This document shows, piece by piece, positions 23,952 through 37,573 of a stretch of DNA of 64,000 nucleotides (positions within the stretch are counted from its first letter, which is position 1; every line of letters starts with the position of its first letter). Where the stretch lies: the NCBI GenBank assembly GCA_051047955.1, contig JBPGPT010000003.1:62001-126000 (forward strand), in the 5' to 3' direction. The stretch is from Cystobasidiomycetes sp. EMM_F5 (taxonomy: Eukaryota). The notes below the pieces were generated by a model. The model saw nothing but the letters and a program-made list of their open reading frames with translations, was not told where the DNA came from and did not search any database. Made by a program: the position numbers and the translations under genes.

Positions 23952-24868
23952 CTACTGCACCTCGATACTCAGATCTATCGCATCGTTCTTGAGCCATCGG
24001 GCTCCCAGGTCTTCCAGATGATCATCCCAGTCTGCAACCTTGTCTTGCAGGCCCTGCTTAATAAGCGATGCTAGACGCGTTGGAGATGCATCATGCGATG
24101 CGTTTTGAAGGAACAAGATATCTTCGGAAGCTGTAGCTGCTGGCGCCTGCAACAGTCTGAAGGCGGACTCGGTGGTGAGGCTTGTGTTATCCAGCTGGTT
24201 TCAACAACTTCAGTGGGTCGTGTACGTACCAACACTGGCAACACTCCACCTACCACAAAGATTCTCGGTACCCATGAAGCGCTCCCTGTCTTCTTTGGCA
24301 AGGCTAGCTGCTGCTGTAGTCGTTGTATCAGTAGCGGTATATTGCTGTTGTCTGACAACAGGGCAGGTTTCGGCAATCCATATGGCGCGTAATAGAACGC
24401 CAATATCTGTAGCCCATTACTATTTGCGTACTCTTCGACCTATGATATGCAGTCTCAGCAGGCTCTGCTCATGTACGGACAAACCAGCATGGCAAGGCTG
24501 ACCATGTCCATCCCCGCTTCGAATGCCATGCTCAGACCAGTCCAGTGGTGTAATAAAGGTATAGCATGCGTATATCTTGCCGTCACATCGCCATCGTATG
24601 CCGTTTCCTTGCCTTTGCCTTTGCCATTCACCTTGTGCACTGGTGTCACAGGTAACTCTCGACTGCTAGATCCAGCTGCCGCAATGTCATTGGAGCCATC
24701 AACAACTTGACTGGCGGTGCCGCTGCGAGTGTTCTTGCTGCCTTCTGCTGAAACGGTACCGAGCAGGCAACCAACGACCACAGAGGAAGGCCAGCGAGCG
24801 GCATGCAGGAGAGGGAGCAGAGAGGCCGCAGGCTGGAAGAGATGGGTGACAGAGCTCGAAGATGCCAT
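23952..24868 (-). CDS. ER membrane complex subunit 8/9 (UPF0172 family)
   Basis: LLPLLHAARWPSSVVVGCLLG, HAIPLLHHWTGLSMAFEAGMDM, and C-terminal VADWDDHLEDLGARWLKN match recalled EMC8/9 signatures. Confidence 0.85.
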
Positions 24869-25431
24869 GTTTTGGACGGGGGGATATGTTTGTGAAGGGC
24901 GCGCTACTCAAGCTGATCGATGATGAAGCCGTGGTCAATTCCGCTACTTGTCCTTTCACTGGTTCTCATGCATCGCACTGCAACGTAACGTAAAGCTTTC
25001 CCGTTCCCCGGTCACAGCAGATTCCTCAAACTCGGCAACCCCAATCAACGCGTTCTACGAGGCCACTTAGAATTGCACCCGTCACCTATACTTCGCTGCT
25101 GGTGGTCCGGCTAACAATATGTTCAGGAGCTGAAAATCTATACGCTGAATGCTGATCTCAGGCCATGCAAGAAGAGAGTCGGCTGTTCGGATTGCTATGC
25201 CAGGTCGTCAACGCCTAAGTATACTAGCCGAAGCGACCTATCATCCAAAAAATGTGAACAGCTGTCTAGCCGAGACTGGTCACGCGGAGTGCAATACGGT
25301 AAGTCTGTCGGACATCAGGATATGTATGAACGCCTTTGAGGAAGCTCTGACTTGTCGTCGCACCGCCCGCGCAGATTCACCTCTTTCTTCTTCCGTCTGC
25401 TGCTTAGACTATCGCATGGTCATATTCAGAC

Positions 25432-26391
25432 ATGCTGGAAGCGAAACCCTCACAACTAGCGCTATTGTTTGCCAGCTTGGTCATAACCGCCATAGCTTGG
25501 ATTGTAGTGGACTACAAGCGTTGGATAGATTTTGGTAAGCGAAAACTCTCGCTCGGATGCGAAGTGATAGACTGAAGACTGGTGCAGGCCAAGGTGCTCC
25601 ACCAAACTCCTGCCATCCTTACGGATACGCCGTCTACCAGGTACAAAAGTACTATCTTTTATGGATCAAACGCGCAAACGTCCACGATACAGCGCCCTTG
25701 AGAGCAGAGCGTGACAAGCAGAGCTTCCTAGCTCAATTCGTTGACAACATATCAAGGAAGAATATAGACAAGTCGGCACAGTTGCCGCTGGCTGTAAGGA
25801 CATGTGATCGTCCTAAGATGGTTCACTGGTAGGTCATCCCATAGTGCATTCGAGTAAAATCCTGACGACTTCTTCAGGATTCTTCCCCATCGTGTCGCGC
25901 CGCCATACAACACAAGCGACGTTCTGAGTACGACTCTTCACTCCCTGCTGGCTGATGTCGTGCTCGACTGGCAGACCTATTGCGGCGCTTCCTCTTCCAT
26001 CGAATGTCAAAAACTTGCCAACGTGCCTCGGATCGGCTTATCTCGACTAGAGGGTCTCGGAAACAGCATTTTACTAACTCCAAACGAAGCCGGGATTGAC
26101 CCCTGCGATGCATCAAGCACAATGTTCTCCGAAGTGGCACACATCCACATGCAAGACATGTCATTTCATGTAGTTCTTTCTCCAGCGGATGCTGCTGTGG
26201 TTGTTGACTGCAAATACGGCGAACGATTTGCAGTTTCGGGCCGTAAAATGTGGACCGGGAGGCTCCGTGGACGCGTCGTACCAGCTGGATACGTGCTTTT
26301 ATACCCACCTCGAAACAAGGAAGAGATCCAGACTGTGAAGCAGATAGTCATGGCAGGCATTGCCTACGCCTTATACGAGCACGTCAAATGA
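25432..26391 (+). CDS. Fungal luciferase-like protein (Luz / luciferase domain, DUF5519-type), paralog 1
   Basis: Introns 25535-25587 and 25829-25877. MLEAKPSQLALLFASLVITAIAWIVVDYKRWIDFGQGAPPNSCHPYGY...LPLAVRTCDRPKMVHWILPHR...SRLEG...EVAHIHMQDMSFHVVLSPADAAVVVDCKYGERFAVSG...VLLYPPRNKEEIQTVKQIVMAGIAYA. An extra 5' exon cannot be excluded. Confidence 0.8.
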
Positions 26392-27089
26392 TTTGGGCCG
26401 CCAAGGCCGTCGAAGATGCAGCTCATTCGGGTTCTTTAAGACAGACTATCTGTCCAATACACGGTGTCAGGCCGAGCGCAAGTATACAATCGTAGTATCC
26501 TCAAAGAGAAAACAAACCCAACACTAAAGTCCGCAAAAGTCTTGAGCCACAATTCTGAAGGATGTATTCCGTTTTCTGGGGGGCGTTCGCTGGTGAAATT
26601 CCCAACGACGCTTCCTTGTGTTTGTCGTGCAAGCCTCGTGGAAAGCATCATGCATTCGGTCTCCACTAACGTCCGGCCCATCATCTGAAGACCGATCAGG
26701 GGCCGAATTTCGGCAACGAATTGTGACAATGCACTCACCCAAATACTGAGAGACTGATGCTCCCATGGGACATGCTTTGACGCGGTACGCTTGTCTTCCA
26801 AAGGTGTGGCCAAATCATTTCCTTACAGATTCTACGGTCGCGAAGCGTCGTGGTCTTATACTGGTACGTCGCCACTTATCTAGGCAGCGCAACGAGGACG
26901 CGAATGGGTATGTACGGATACTTCCAACGTCTCCAGGATGTTCAGGCTGTGTCCCTTGTCCGAAGGACGCTCGAATGTCAAACATACTTCATTATATCGC
27001 CATTTCTCCGTAATTCATTCGGCTAGCATCCGCCAGCGCTAAAGGCGATACCTGGGACTGCGTACGGTAAAGGCAGTGTAGGCGACTTC

Positions 27090-28017
27090 ATGTGCTTCTT
27101 CGCCACCCTAGCTCTGGCATCTTGGGTTTTCCACGACTACAAGAATTGGATTGCATTCGGTATGTCTGAACTTATTAGCGGCCAATCGCACGAGTATCTG
27201 ACACTATGACAGGCAACGGTGCCCCTCCAACAGCCTGCAACCCTTACGGTTATGCTCTGTTCCAAATCCAGAAGGTTTACCTGTTATGGATCCTACGGCT
27301 GCGGATAGACGATGCCAAACCTCTCCGAACGGACAGCTGCCAGTCTAGCTTCCTGTCGCGTTTTAAAGCAGGTCATCGCCTGGATGTGTGGCCCTATACA
27401 GCACTGCCAATTCGAACAGGCGCGAGACCGGCTCTGGTGCACTGGTGAGACACGTCGACGTGATGCGTAGTCTGACAGCTGATAGCACGGCAAGGATTCT
27501 GCCGCAGCGTGTAGCGCCGCCCTATCGGCCGAGCAAGGCCCTGGGCTCCGCTATAAAATCAATTCTGGCTGACGTGACTTTCCACTGGCGGAGTTTCTGC
27601 AGCTCCAGCATGGACCCCGAGATAAGGGCACTCATGGGTGTTCCCAGCATTGCGGTGTCTCGGTTGGAGGGACAAGGCGACAGCATTGTGTTGGAGCCCA
27701 ATGCTGTAGGTATTCAACCATGCTCCGTATCGAAGCAGATGTGCAGTGAAGTCGCACATATTCATGGTCAAGATATGTCGTTCCACGTCCTTTTGGCACC
27801 CGCAGATGCTGCAGCGGTTGTGGAAGCGAAGTACGGGGTGCGATTTGCAATTTCTGGACAGAAAGCGTGGACTGGTCGGCACAAGGGTCAAAATGTTCCG
27901 TCTGGATTTGTCCTGGTCTATCCGCCCCGAGACGAAATGGAGATCAAAATAGTGAAGCAGATAATTATGGCCGGAATAGCGTTCGCTCTATGTGAGCGCC
28001 CCCAGAACATAATGTAG
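27090..28017 (+). CDS. Fungal luciferase-like protein (Luz / luciferase domain, DUF5519-type), paralog 2
   Basis: Introns 27160-27212 and 27445-27494, in the same positions and phases as paralog 1. MCFFATLALASWVFHDYKNWIAFGNGAPPTACNPYGY...LPIRTGARPALVHWILPQR...EVAHIHGQDMSFHVLLAPADAAAVVEAKYGVRFAISG...VLVYPPRDEMEIKIVKQIIMAGIAFA. The start may lie slightly upstream. Confidence 0.8.
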
Positions 28018-28286
28018 ACTCAATAATGGTCATAGAAGAAGTGTTCACGTTTGTAGCAAAATAGACACTGAGAGACATTGCAGCAGGCCCGGTATATTTG
28101 GACGTGGAATTTAGTGCTGTACTCCTGCTCGTACATATGCCCGAACAATTTTGTTCTGGCTTCTGGTGATGGCTTCTCGCAGCAGGATTCGGAGTGCTAG
28201 GCATTTCCGATCTTGAATAATGGTAAGGATCGCTAACGCCAGAGGTATGTGCCCTGTGATCGAGATCTAAGCCTCCTTATCCAGCT

Positions 28287-30264
28287 TTACAGATATCCTG
28301 ACATACCCTTTCGATACCCTTCGGCTCGGATCGATGAAGTCTGCCTCACAAGTTCCTGCTTAAATAAGTTTACACCCAGCCGTATTGGGTCTTCCGGATC
28401 CAGCTGTCCGTGATCCGATTCACGAAATACAGCCTTTGCTGTCTCCTCGTCTATCTCAGTCTCCACGTATCCTGCTACCCATGGATAAGTCGAGGCTAAG
28501 TGAATCAAATGCGCGCCCTGCAGTATGCGACTCAGCCTACTGTCCCGTTCGGGGCAGAATCTCATGCTACATACGCAGTACCGATTGCTCAATATCCTTC
28601 GAAGGACTCCATCGACGACTACGTCTAAGCTGGTGGTCTTGGGTAAATAAGTCCCGACCATTTTCCAAGCTTTGTGGTATTCGGATGGTGAAAGCCAAGC
28701 GCTGGCAAGAAACTCGACGGCTGAACCTGCAGTCGTTCCATTGCTAAGCAATTTCTTCGACGCGCGCATCTTGTCGCATTTAATGCAATACAAGAGGAAC
28801 ACGGCGTTCGCCTTGTGGGTTTCGGGACGGTCGTTTCTTCCTACGTTGGCCACGTAATGCTTATAATAGCGATCCTGTCTTCTAAGTACGATATGTGTGG
28901 GCATTGAAGCGAGGAAGACTTGCGAGTACTCCCTACGACACGACGACCACTGAGTGTCATGTATTGCAAAGTGGCAGTCGTCACTTACAGCCAAGTCTCC
29001 ACGCCATAAGCTCGAGTAATGAGACGCTCGCCGAAGTCATACATAATGTCACCGCCTCCTGACGTGTTCGTGTAATATTTAACTGACGTGAAGGTCAGTG
29101 CTAGCGCGGCTTTCCTAAACACCCTGCTTTACCGTATCCTTCTTTGCACGTATATTTCCATAGAAACGGGCCTAATGAGTCGCAGAAGTTCCGCAGCAAG
29201 GCTGGTGATGTAGATTCCTGGAAAGACGACATTTCAGTAGTGGGTGTATGTAATGTAGCAGAAAAGTGTCGCCACAAACAATCAGGGCAGGCCCAATACC
29301 TAAGACTTGCAAAAGTGCGTTGTGTTGTGTGACTTGCATATGCGCAGTGTATATGTGCGCGGCCATACTCTCTGCGATCACAGGCTCTCGAAAGTTCAAA
29401 GGTCCACCATGTAGAAAGAATAGCTCCTGCCAGAGTTGCGTGTTCTCGATATTGAGCAAGAGCCAGCTTATGAGAGCCGCCAGATCTGTCCTTGTGACGG
29501 TGAAAAGCCCGCGAACTCTGGTCAGGAGCGTTCGCACTCGATGTTTTAGTAAAAGCTCTCTGAAGCAAGAAGACGGCCATACCGAAGAAGGAAATGTTGC
29601 ATCACTGCGAGGGCTGCTTCTTGCATTTCAGGCTGGCCCGTTTCGAGCATCGGTATTACCCTTCGCTCGCACATTCAGCATGTAAGGTTGATATTCATGT
29701 AGCATCACAACCGGACATACGTGTGTATGAATTGCGCATCATCGACGTCTATGTTTTTGAGAGCGAGGCGTCCACCCCTGACCACTAGAAATGGCGATAT
29801 ATCCGCTAAGCGATGTGTCGCAGTGAGTGTCACACGAGAGGCCTGTCGCTCCTGCGATATACCCTGTCGATGCCGTCCAGCCATGTATGCGGCTGCATTA
29901 CGCGAGAGACCGACTCCACGCTCGACGAAGTACTGTACAGACGTGGCTTTAGCGCATATCCTGACTTCGGGACGGCGGTATGGGAAATCACATCGATGAG
30001 GGGCACCGTCAAGAGACGAGGAATATGCCATAGCTTGACAAAAATCTCACAGCGGTAAAACCTCCGCCGAAACCAGCGCCATATGAAGAATTCTTGCGTG
30101 CATAGATTGTGAATTGAAGGGCTCGTCAGATTAATCGATTTCAGATCATCCGATTCCAACTCCAGGAATATTGGAAGTAGTAGATCTGGTATTTGTGCCA
30201 CACGCTCTGGGGCGGAGAGGAGTCTATGACCACTAGAAACATCAGTCACGTTGTCGACCTGCAT
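28287..30264 (-). CDS. Putative F-box-like domain protein, multi-exon
   Basis: N-terminal RVAQIPDLLLPIFLELESDDLKSINLTSPSIHNL fits a degenerate fungal F-box pattern. Further co-directional ORF pieces at 29537-29172 and 28994-28287. Exon joins not fully resolved. Confidence 0.5.
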
Positions 30265-32370
30265 GTTGCTGTGTTGGAACAGGACGCGAAGTCATCTCAG
30301 GCTGGGGACGGTCGTCTATGCGGCTTTGGCGGTCGAACCGCTCAACATCGATTACGTAGACCAGAATGGACAGAATGCGCGCCAGGCTAGATGTGCGCAG
30401 CTTGCAGTTTTAACCAGCTTTCAGCGTCATGAAGCCTGATGGGCACCATGATCCTGCGACTTGATGACGATGATGCAGCAACATGTGCGTGTAAAAGAGC
30501 GACGGGCCAAGGCTCGACATCCCAGTTCTGCGACATAAGCAACTAGGGAACGCAACGACGCTCGATAACCCTACGCAGTACCTCATCCCACACTCGCTAC
30601 TTCGTCGCATCAAGCTGTCCACGTGCACGTCATGAATAGACATTAATATTGGCATGGCTGCCGCGACAAGTGACAATTGACGCGACGCTATCATCTCACT
30701 CTACCAGCAATTTGCGTCCATCTGCGATTCAGACTGATACCGAGTTCCGTTTTACGTCTCACCCCGCCCGTCACCGACAACTGTCCCCACGCACAAGGTC
30801 GCTTGTGCGTCGGTAAAGTTGGGAATGTCGCCCAGCACCTCCTTACCTACAATCAGCAAGTCAGAGGACACTTCGTGCCAACGAGCCAAAATTCCACTGA
30901 CCGGACGCAGCGAACGCCTTTCCTACAGACTCCACATCTTTGAAAATGAGATCTGCCTGGATTTGATACGGCGCAGGAGACCCATCCAGACTTGCCAATT
31001 CGCTGATCCTCCAGCTCACCAGACCATGCGGTCCAAAAAGCTTGCCAACCAATGGCATGTGTGCTACTATTTTATCAGTTTCCTCGTCTGAAGGCGTTAG
31101 GGCTTCTCCTACTCTTCAAGTAGTAATCCTTATCGAAACGTTGCTATGAACGAATGATACGTCAGAATGGCAGGTTATTCCTGTGCAGCTGAAAGTGATC
31201 AATTTAAATTTTAAATCAAACTTACTCCTGCAGGGTATATGACTTAATGAATCATTAGTAGACCAGACGATACCGCCCGGCAACTCCCAACTCGGTCCTT
31301 ACCCATGACGTTGGTGTTTCCCATGTTGACGAGGACACTGCGTAGTCCGTGCAATGCGCAGGAAGCCAAATGCTCTCTAGACGCATGTCATGCAGTGGTC
31401 ACGAGCCCCGGCTAGAAACCGCGGGCGTTGCCGGTCCGTCATGAAGAGTATGACAACTGACATTGCCGCTGGAAACGACAAAGTTACAGGGCAATGTCAA
31501 TCTTCGATTGCAGGCAGACAGACGCAGAGAACAAGTACCCATCTTGAGACTAAAGGTAGCTCGTTCGACTCGTTCGAGGACCGAAGTGTGGCAATCCAGC
31601 CCGCGATTCCCTGCATACTTCGACTCAGGCTGGAAGCATAGTCGTATGCGGTCTGGCTGACGCTTCGATGATTCGATACCTTACTCAATTCGCCTCTTCT
31701 CGGCAATGATAACAAAATGGCCTAATATGTTTACAGTATACGCGCCTGTGAGTACTGTACCTGACACGCGTATGTGTAGCGAAAAAATGCGAATGTGCGC
31801 ACCTACAGATGTTAGGGCATGGAAGGTAGTAATAGGATACACCTTCGTGTCTTCGTCTTGTCCTCTTAATCCCTCAGCTGCAGCTACAATTGATGTTTCT
31901 CTTGCTGAGGTGGTAGCTGGACTGAGCGTGCGGTTTTGTCGCGTATGCTTGACAGATCTAAGGACTGTAACTTATGGAATGCAAGATTATCAAGGAGTCG
32001 ACGTCTGCATTTTTTCGACTACCGAACGATGTTCGGCATGACGCTAGTATAGCGCGATCCACACTCCGCTCCTTCATCATACGTTGTGCCATTCAGCCCC
32101 ATACCCGAATAAAAGGAAGCTCCTTACGGGACACTTACGTGCTAACGTTGCCTTGTCAGCGTACAAAAGATGACTCGACGACTGTCGGCTAGCTGCATGT
32201 GGTCTACAGTAGTACAGCAGCTCTGTGTCGCGCTCCCATCTGCAGCTGCACCCAAAAACTTGGCTGTGATACTCGCCAACAACTTCCTTGCGAGTGGCAG
32301 ACAATATCGTTCTCCGCTGTGAGTGTGAGACAGATTATGTTGCGGACGACAGCTGACGCACAAAGGCTCC

Positions 32371-36273: not shown

Positions 36274-37573
36274 ATGCCTTTCGGTCAAATTGTGCGCATT
36301 CTGAGTCTGACTTGTGGCCTACAGTAGCTAGCAGGAATCTGATTGAACGGCAAAACAGGTCATCGGTCCTCCTGGCTCTGGCAAATCGACCTATTGTAAT
36401 GGCTTGCAGCAATTCTTTGGAGCGCTGGAGCGCCCACTTCACATTGTCAACCTAGATCCTGCAAACAATCAACTGCCGTACGAATGCGCGCTCGATATCA
36501 CAGAATTGGTATCGCTCCAGGATGTCATGGACGAATTTGGCCTGGGGCCTAACGGAGCCATGATCTACTGCTTGGAATACCTAGAGGAGAACTTTGACTG
36601 GCTCGAAGACCGTCTGAATAGCTTACGACAGCTCAACCATCTGGAAGACGAGACTATCGATGCGGACAATGCACCGAAGTCCGGCATGCCCGAATATGTC
36701 GTCTTTGATATGCCGGGCCAGGTTGAGTTGTCGACCAACCACAACAGTCTACGTAATATAATCGTAAAGCTCGAGAAGGCCGGTTACAGGGTTGGTCAGC
36801 TTCCAGCAACAGACCCCTGTAGTGCACATGCTGATTCTGCCTATAAGCTTGCTGCCGTCAACCTGACCGACGCATTCCATGTCACTTCTGCATCCACGTA
36901 TGTGTCAATACTGCTCCTTTCATTGCGTACTATGCTTCAACTCGAACTGCCGCACTTGAATGTCCTATCCAAGATCGATCTCATCACGTCGTACGGCGAT
37001 TTGCCATTCAATCTCGACTTCTACACAGAAGTACAAGACCTGTCATATTTACAGCACGAGCTGGAGAAGGATCCTCGCACAAGGCAAGGCCGGTTCCTAG
37101 AATTGAATCGAGCCATCTGCGAGATTGTCGAAGATTTTGGACTGGTCTCCTTTCAGACGCTATGTGTGGAAGACAAAGTGTCGATGGCAGCCATCGTTAA
37201 AACACTCGATCAGATGCTTGGCTATGTTCCAGCCCGTTCACTCGGGGATACACATTCGCACTCCCATAGATTCCATGACCATGGACACGGGGAAGGTGAA
37301 GCACGTCATCAACAGTCAGGTACGTCAATGCCGGCACCATCTGAGGCCAAGACTGCAAACGCGATGCTGCATGCTTTGCCGCTGTCGTCCTTCCCGTCCG
37401 TGTCGGAAGTTCAAGAAAGGTATGTAGACAATCGGGCGCATCACCTCCGCCACGAGAAAACGCGCTGGCAACTTGAAGCAGACCAACATTTCGAGCGGAA
37501 GACGGAAGAAGTGAGGCAGTCGGCAGTACAGCAAGGTATCAAGGAAGTCGGAAAGACGACAACCGCGCTATGA
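36274..37573 (+). CDS. GPN2: GPN-loop GTPase 2
   Basis: MPFGQI|VIGPPGSGKSTYC (P-loop), VNLDPAN, FGLGPNG (GPN loop), FDMPGQVEL, HLNVLSKIDL, LPFNLDFYTEVQDLSYL. Confidence 0.95.

Follow-up and report, generated by a model that had tools for sequence, protein, structure and literature searches.

Diverged tandem genes of the fungal luciferase family in a probably non-agaric basidiomycete, and the coupling of bacterial relatives to FAH-type hydrolases

The question raised by positions 25432..28017 of the 64-kb stretch of DNA presented above (the window, that is, the whole stretch at its full length) is what two adjacent genes of the fungal luciferase family, here termed g1 and g2, may be doing where no luciferin pathway surrounds them. 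All known luminous fungi are Agaricales, as stated in the available part of one source (PMC11766655), and the host of the window is probably a basidiomycete outside the Agaricales, of a poorly sampled, Pucciniomycotina-like lineage. Because relatives are common in non-glowing fungi and in bacteria, a pair of luciferase-family genes is not in itself a sign of light production. The reading preferred here, to which a probability of about one half may be assigned, is that g1 and g2 go back to an old tandem duplication of a PF17648 family gene in a non-agaric basidiomycete, and that they encode membrane-tethered, non-luminous enzymes which open a ring in an O2-dependent reaction, by analogy with the mushroom luciferase Luz.

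Membership of the family is established by profile searches. The PF17648 model (fungal luciferase domain; cut-off 23.7) matches the third exon of both genes, with 50.1 bits (E = 3.3e-13) for g1, over residues 85-159 of the exon-3 translation (nt 26131-26355), and 52.2 bits (E = 6.9e-14; nt 27748-27972) for g2. The exon-2 parts of the two genes match no Pfam model, and in NCBIfam no family was matched by any of the six proteins compared. The architecture of the family, whose full length is taken as about 240-290 aa, is found in both genes: a hydrophobic N-terminus, D-Y-x-x-W..G-x-G-x-P, R-P, P-x-R and S-x-x-E, and then the domain. The family assignment made in an earlier, sequence-only reading of this DNA is thereby confirmed. 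The motifs listed in that reading are likewise all present in both genes, except that g1 has V-R-T-x-x-R-P and not L/I-R-T.

The gene models were built by reading positions 24800-28700 and testing combinations of donors and acceptors; the interval under study is bounded by the ATG of g1 and the stop codon of g2 (Table 1). An open in-frame product of g1 (284-285 aa) is obtained only with the intron 1 donor at 25535, and the acceptor of g2 intron 2 is, among those that keep the frame, the one restoring V-H-W/I-L-P-Q-R (the slash marking the junction) as in g1. All four introns are of the GT..AG type, and three of them carry a CTGAC branch-like motif near the 3' end. In both genes intron 1 splits the Gly codon of the F-G motif behind its first base and intron 2 falls after V-H-W, and the common positions and phases described earlier are confirmed by the exon lengths of the splice models. 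The motif in g1 exon 1 aligns with the family block DY..W..G.GG.P, and g1 exon 2 aligns with the N-terminal half of P0002, the closest relative found, and with bacterial members. The junction at g1 intron 2, V-H-W/I-L-P-H-R, is uninterrupted in P0002. In general, the spliced reading is continuous across both junctions with intron-less bacterial members and with P0002, so that the two models are supported by homology besides their open frames. The G+C contents of g1 (0.51) and g2 (0.54) match the composition of the window (0.52).

Table 1. Positions of the two luciferase-family genes, their parts and other features of the window discussed in the text
Feature	Positions	Strand	Description
EMC8/9-type UPF0172 gene	24458-24907	-	family match; directly upstream of g1
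g1	25432-26391	+	3 exons, 285 aa
g1 exon 1	25432..25534	+	ATG, hydrophobic anchor, D-Y-K-R-W..F-G motif; from splice model and hydropathy
g1 intron 1	25535..25587	+	53 nt, GTAAGC..CAG, phase 1
g1 exon 2	25588..25828	+	G-A-P-P..P-Y-G-Y and V-R-T-C-D-R-P motifs
g1 intron 2	25829..25877	+	49 nt, GTAGGT..CAG, phase 2
g1 exon 3 and stop	25878..26391	+	S-R-L-E, E-V-A-H-I-H..D.S-F-H and Y-P-P-R motifs
Spacer between paralogs	26392..27089		698 bp
ORF inside spacer	26436-26822	antisense	128 aa
g2	27090-28017	+	3 exons, 274 aa
g2 exon 1	27090..27159	+	ATG, short hydrophobic stretch, D-Y-K-N-W..F-G; putative 5' end
g2 intron 1	27160..27212	+	53 nt, GTATGT..CAG, phase 1, position as in g1
g2 exon 2	27213..27444	+	aligned with g1 exon 2 and P0002
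g2 intron 2	27445..27494	+	50 nt, GTGAGA..AAG, phase 2, position as in g1
g2 exon 3 and stop	27495..28017	+	PF17648 match; 60% identical to g1 exon 3
ORF downstream of g2	28290-29036	-	249 aa
ORF with F-box-like match	29833-30291	-	sub-threshold match
GPN2 gene	36347-37573	+	used for host placement
P450 gene	59125-60061	+	two ORFs

The two genes have diverged considerably. Identity between g1 and g2 is 100/167 residues in exon 3 and 148/271 residues (54.6%) over the full length. The proportion of non-synonymous differences (pN) is 0.30 and that of synonymous differences (pS) 0.79, and the synonymous sites are saturated, for which reason no numeric ratio of non-synonymous to synonymous rates (dN/dS) is given. 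The saturation indicates that the duplication is old. Since pN is far below the saturated pS, both copies are under purifying selection, and the earlier description of intact, diverged tandem paralogs is borne out by the open three-exon frames together with these values. It may be presumed that both copies are expressed.

The N-terminal hydrophobic anchor ascribed to both genes by the sequence-only reading is clear in g1 (residues 9-27, nt 25456-25512; 19-residue Kyte-Doolittle mean of 2.39), but in g2 the hydrophobic stretch behind the Met is no longer than 13 residues (residues 2-14, nt 27093-27131; mean of 1.98). Reading of the spacer revealed no in-frame ATG upstream of the g2 start, and inspection of the sequence by eye revealed no frame-compatible upstream exon. 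The 5' end of g2 is therefore uncertain, the hydrophobic stretch being short and an upstream in-frame ATG being absent. For nnLuz, the available part of one report describes a predicted N-terminal helix and a location in the microsomal fraction (PMC6294908).

The family to which the pair belongs is large and widespread. Among 1.84 billion representative proteins, a profile search found 976 related clusters (defined at 50% identity) at E ≤ 0.001 and 494 at E ≤ 1e-10, with the window's own fragments ranked near the top. The nearest clusters in the ESM Atlas are 96-98% PF17648, and a search of the same atlas for relatives without PF17648 gave no usable match. With a second family profile, 50 of the 88 matches were named, and all 50 belong to non-luminous Ascomycota (including Fusarium, Pyricularia, Colletotrichum, Exophiala, Aspergillus, Verticillium, and Daldinia), most of them labelled 'Luciferase domain-containing protein'. 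Cluster look-ups gave basidiomycete members in Rhodosporidiobolus lusitaniae, Mrakia frigida, and Fistulina hepatica, and further members in Choiromyces, Tolypocladium, two lichen fungi, and a Pseudonocardiaceae bacterium. The members in Bacillus safensis and B. pumilus are labelled 'DUF5519 family / luciferase family protein'. That organisms which emit no light have relatives of luciferase, outside any luciferin cluster, can thus already be seen from public annotation. The novelty that had been seen in the pair is not sustained, because the label 'luciferase domain-containing / DUF5519' is already given to family members in many non-luminous Ascomycota, in some basidiomycetes, and in six bacterial phyla. 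According to the accessible text of Kotlobay et al. (2018), nnLuz had 'no described homologs' (PMC6294908); a name for the family has been introduced in Pfam and UniProt since then. In the literature searched, no paper on PF17648 or DUF5519 and no description of non-luminous members was found. One protein of the family, P0008 of Aphanocladium album (364 aa), has two luciferase domains in a single polypeptide (two Pfam stretches), an internal duplication as against the gene duplication in the window.

The placement of the pair within the family was estimated with IQ-TREE from 80 rows and 248 columns, the Agaricales being represented solely by P0070 of the non-luminous Fistulina hepatica, as no named Agaricales luciferase was among the matches of the word-index, profile and cluster searches. 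g1 and g2 are sisters, with a support of 97 in the SH-like approximate likelihood ratio test (SH-aLRT), and P0002 joins them (99). The trio is in turn sister (89) to a clade with Rhodosporidiobolus lusitaniae P0085, Aspergillus avenaceus P0109, and two metagenome proteins. The branch leading to the trio is long, with more than 3 substitutions per site from the nearest other relatives. These distances are reflected in the pairwise identities: P0002 is 46% identical to g1 over 255 residues, the next 11 relatives are 25-29.5% identical (among the best 14 of 279 family proteins, two of the 14 being fragments from the window), and Fistulina P0070 is 27% identical over 179 residues. The pair stands apart from Fistulina P0070 and P0090 in the tree; constraining the trio to group with the Fistulina clade lowers the log-likelihood by 19.9 units, with a p value of 0.221 in the approximately unbiased test (p-AU), so that this alternative is not rejected. 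The 33 bacterial-side rows all group in a single clade (95), outside which the genes of the window fall, and there is thus no sign of a recent transfer from bacteria.

P0002 (268 aa, from a contig of 1134 bp) is a single uninterrupted open reading frame (ORF) that spans both intron positions, and its N-terminus has neither the hydrophobic anchor nor the D-Y-x-x-W motif. Its source may be a transcript, or else a gene that lacks the two introns of g1 and g2.

The position of the host was assessed with the GPN2 gene of the window, whose product reaches an identity of about 50% at the most with named fungal proteins and of 58% with one Logan protein. Its best full-length matches are from Pucciniomycotina yeasts (Pseudohyphozyma, Sporobolomyces, Rhodotorula, and Rhodosporidiobolus), Bartheletia, and Atractiella, and the Agaricales reach only 45-47%. 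The suggestion of a non-agaric host is in accordance with these values.

Conserved and altered residues of the trio were compared with 140 other family members, with the numbering of P0002. The trio retains P101, R103, S155, E158, E183, H186, H188, D191, S193, H195, D202, Y240, P242, R243, and E247, each of which is 86-100% conserved. Four other conserved positions are altered. In the G-W-G-E-R-H block, His215 (94% His in the other members) is replaced by Phe in the whole clade and Trp211 (98% Trp) by Tyr in g1 and g2; Gly210 (88% Gly) is replaced by Lys or Asn, and Gln104, which follows P-H-R (89% Gln), by Val or Glu. Fistulina P0070 keeps the canonical Trp and His. The same change from His to Phe recurs in P0019 (Mrakia frigida), P0085 (Rhodosporidiobolus lusitaniae), P0060, and P0151, and in P0071 and P0104 the near-invariant His position is occupied by Met. 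Since several near-invariant residues are replaced, the clade appears to be derived and not ancestral, and the proposal that the pair stands close to the ancestral, non-luminescent role of the family is not supported, given the long branch and the loss of residues that are 88-98% conserved elsewhere. The recurrence of the change in Mrakia and Rhodosporidiobolus speaks for a derived subfamily whose centre lies in the basidiomycete yeasts, and the changed residues suggest that the specificity or the chemistry of g1 and g2 is altered.

Such replacements might also mean that the pair has lost the catalysis of the family altogether and that its role as a membrane protein is one of binding, scaffolding or regulation, in a subfamily of pseudo-enzymes. 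The Phe at the near-invariant His position in g1, g2 and P0002, the Tyr at the Trp position in g1 and g2, and the length of the clade's branch all fit this explanation. It is nevertheless considered unlikely, because 15 further polar and structural residues of high conservation are retained, constraint acts on both copies, and the exchange of His for Phe in four other proteins has the appearance of a functional subfamily and not of decay.

Evidence bearing on the function of the family comes from its bacterial relatives. Bacterial genomes were scanned with 8 bacterial rows of the alignment, and the 80 best-scoring loci, which are not a random sample, were analysed. They are distributed over Actinomycetota, Pseudomonadota, Acidobacteriota, Bacteroidota, Chloroflexota, Cyanobacteriota, and Bacillota. 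In 31 of the 80 loci, an FAA_hydrolase domain (PF01557) is either fused to the Luz-like domain or encoded within three ORFs of it, one locus belonging to both groups. The fusions number 15, each a single FAA_hydrolase-Luciferase protein (15/15 checked with Pfam), for example L045:5044-6663 and L003:5072-6624; they are found among 20 long ORFs, the other five of which show the luciferase domain only. P0020 is also a fusion of the two domains, in the opposite order. A separate FAA_hydrolase gene at most three ORFs away is found in 17 loci (17/17 checked with Pfam), in 16 of them on the same strand. Ten of these 17 genes adjoin within 32 nt or overlap by one base, and the arrangement is found in six phyla. 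All 15 fusions, in contrast, come from Bacteroidota records, and the four that were sampled for the tree make up one Bacteroidota clade (100); the 15 fusions therefore probably go back to one event.

Other recurrent neighbours in the bacteria are AraC regulators (16 loci), Glyoxalase/VOC proteins of dioxygenase type (7), Amidohydro_2 (6), YceI (6), SnoaL-like proteins (5), and short-chain dehydrogenases (5), the labels resting on one or two Pfam-scanned members per BLAST cluster. Judging from these contents, the neighbourhoods have the look of small-molecule catabolism. No description of a coupling of FAH and the luciferase family in bacteria was found in the literature searched.

This coupling may be compared with what is reported for mushrooms. 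In the accessible text of one source, Luz adds O2 to 3-hydroxyhispidin to give an endoperoxide and then caffeylpyruvate (PMC13669639), which is split by CPH, a hydrolase of the FAH superfamily, into caffeate and pyruvate (PMC13669639; PMC5406138; the latter likewise consulted in part). The bacterial loci provide an independent connection to this second step, and as the bacterial members are coupled to hydrolases of the family that acts next after Luz in mushrooms, the product of the family would be a substrate of FAH enzymes, i.e. a diketo acid of the acylpyruvate type.

On this basis, the following mechanism may be proposed for g1 and g2. The N-terminal helix would tether the proteins to an internal membrane, as in mushroom luciferase, and the domain of about 170 residues behind it carries the polar residues that the family conserves, in P-x-R, S-x-x-E, E-x-x-H-x-H-x-x-D-x-S-x-H, D, and Y-x-P-R. 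By analogy with Luz, O2 would be added to an enolisable hydroxylated ring, such as a hydroxypyrone or a similar compound, and the ring would open to a 2,4-diketo acid (acylpyruvate) without useful emission of light. The label 'membrane-bound oxygenase', given to the pair in the sequence-only reading, would likewise be carried over from Luz.

Several points weigh against this proposal. Metal binding, or chemistry of a hydrolytic or isomerase kind, would be equally compatible with the conserved set of His, Glu and Asp, and the four altered positions could change or abolish catalysis. Neither an FAH gene nor another catabolic partner was found in the 64-kb window, and no activity of any non-luminous member was found in the literature searched. 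The bacterial link to FAH is partly non-independent, since, in addition to the related fusions, two of the adjacent-gene loci look near-identical. The anchor of g2 is short and its start position uncertain. Finally, the structure model described below is that of P0002 and not of g1 or g2.

In another explanation, the family outside mushrooms is not an oxygenase at all. It would catalyse an isomerisation, a decarboxylation or a hydrolysis in a pathway ending in FAH, and the oxygenase activity of Luz would be a later invention. The link to FAH demonstrates a coupling of pathways only and not a reaction; the ring opening could be provided by the neighbouring Glyoxalase/VOC or Amidohydro_2 proteins, and no cofactor or oxygenase signature was detectable in the sequence in the Pfam and NCBIfam scans. 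On the other hand, the sole characterised member is an oxygenase whose type of product FAH enzymes cleave, and bacterial members and the Agaricales protein Fistulina P0070 conserve the same residues. Such an explanation is therefore thought improbable, and O2-dependent ring opening is retained as the preferred reading.

The structure of P0002, modelled from a 145-row alignment, folds confidently, with a predicted local distance difference test (pLDDT) score of 86.3 and a predicted template modelling (pTM) score of 0.86. The model comprises a helical part at the N-terminus and, at residues ~113-268, an alpha+beta domain. A profile search of the PDB sequences gave 0 matches at E up to 1, and Foldseek gave no match of the model in PDB at E up to 0.001. 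The best Z scores of VIA-align, all on residues ~113-268, are 6.9 (2a1v, DUF419), 5.5 (YjbR), and 5.2 (frataxin-like). Values of 5.2-6.9 are in the range common for models without a true match, and no functional conclusion was drawn from them. The lack of a PDB match by sequence or Foldseek agrees with the term 'structurally enigmatic' applied to Luz in the available part of a 2026 preprint (10.64898/2026.09.09.750069).

Compared with known systems, the pair is most readily set beside Luz itself (nnLuz of Neonothopanus nambi and its Agaricales orthologs). Both have PF17648 and a predicted N-terminal membrane helix followed by the catalytic domain, and their lengths are similar (267 aa for Luz, 274-285 aa for the pair). 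In contrast to the pair, whose host is non-agaric, the Luz gene is clustered with those for hispidin synthase, H3H, and a P450. Luz was compared by its description, with Fistulina P0070 as a stand-in. The 'Luciferase domain-containing / DUF5519' proteins of non-luminous fungi (Fusarium, Pyricularia, Colletotrichum, Exophiala, Aspergillus, Rhodosporidiobolus, and Mrakia) have their architecture and conserved residues in common with the pair; they differ from it in being 25-30% identical to g1 and g2 among the best-scoring matches listed, in that most of them keep the canonical Trp and His, and in the tandem arrangement seen in the window. The bacterial FAA_hydrolase-Luciferase fusions and Luz-like/FAH operons (Bacteroidota, Sphingomonas, Paraburkholderia, Acidobacteriota, and Chloroflexota, among others) have the D-Y-x-x-W..G-x-G-G-x-P block and the His/Glu/Asp/Ser pattern of the pair. 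Unlike the pair, they are intron-less, coupled to an FAH hydrolase, often accompanied by AraC regulators, and placed in a clade of their own.

A further comparison concerns the proposed chemistry. Cofactor-independent dioxygenases of the HOD/QDO type react a deprotonated hydroxy-heterocycle with O2, whereby the ring is opened and a one-carbon gas is lost, and their fold is that of the alpha/beta-hydrolase family. The chemistry proposed for the luciferase family would be similar, but fold and sequence are unrelated, the PDB searches gave no match, and the likeness is an analogy only.

The surroundings of the pair were examined in a scan of stop-to-stop ORFs of at least 85 aa, minus those nested in larger ORFs assigned to a family; exons shorter than 85 aa escape such a scan. 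Among these ORFs no polyketide synthase (PKS), flavin adenine dinucleotide (FAD)-monooxygenase or FAA_hydrolase domain was found in the 64 kb. The only P450 of the window is represented by gene fragments in two ORFs (E = 1.8e-17 and 7.8e-27); the distance to the pair is 31 kb, with housekeeping genes in between. The claim that no luciferin-pathway cluster surrounds the pair is thus upheld, as is that of an EMC8/9 neighbour. The neighbour described as 'F-box-like', on the other hand, is reduced to a sub-threshold match (E = 0.032, 14.4 bits versus a cut-off of 24.3) in an ORF that is not adjacent. The ORF directly downstream of g2 has no family match, and no Pfam family was found in the ORFs of at least 85 aa of the spacer, the antisense ORF inside it included. 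The other genes of the window include those of a MutL-type protein, eIF4G, roadblock, GPN2, alkaline phosphatase, MRG, and GTP cyclohydrolase II, as well as DPH3, S10, BCS1, a parvulin, ATE1, and lipin. The P450 is the sole gene of the secondary-metabolism type in the window.

Two remaining explanations have little to recommend them. That an annotation artefact or a pseudogene underlies one or both of the models might be suspected from the short N-terminus of g2, but it is highly improbable, considering that both have three-exon open frames with canonical splice sites at homologous positions, that their junctions are continuous with intron-less homologs, and that non-synonymous change is far below synonymous change. 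Least credible is the explanation that g1 and g2 are true luciferases of a luminous organism with a hispidin-type or other luciferin made elsewhere in the genome, for although the domain family and architecture are those of Luz and the search for pathway genes spanned the 64-kb window only, no equivalent of hisps, h3h or cph lies in these 64 kb, the host is non-agaric, g1 is distant from the Agaricales protein P0070, and homologs abound in non-luminous species.

The preferred reading, of membrane-tethered enzymes that would open a ring with O2, may be extended in a tentative way, more doubtful than the reading itself. g1, g2, and P0002, probably together with the Rhodosporidiobolus and Mrakia members, would form a subfamily of basidiomycete yeasts with Phe in place of His, implying a changed substrate or chemistry. 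The luciferase family as a whole would be an ancient O2-dependent ring-opening step that provides an FAH hydrolase with an acylpyruvate, and the partnership of Luz and CPH would be what is left, after co-option, of a catabolic module which bacteria retain as a fusion or an operon.

Non-luminous fungi routinely have genes with the luciferase domain and no luciferin cluster, and the pair alone is of little weight. Some value comes from the strong divergence and the duplication of this lineage in a basidiomycete whose group has been little sampled: altered at positions that nearly all other members conserve, it offers a natural contrast for the residues that are important in Luz. The most useful lead is the bacterial link to FAH, which provides a concrete and testable idea of the role that the luciferase family may have had before bioluminescence.

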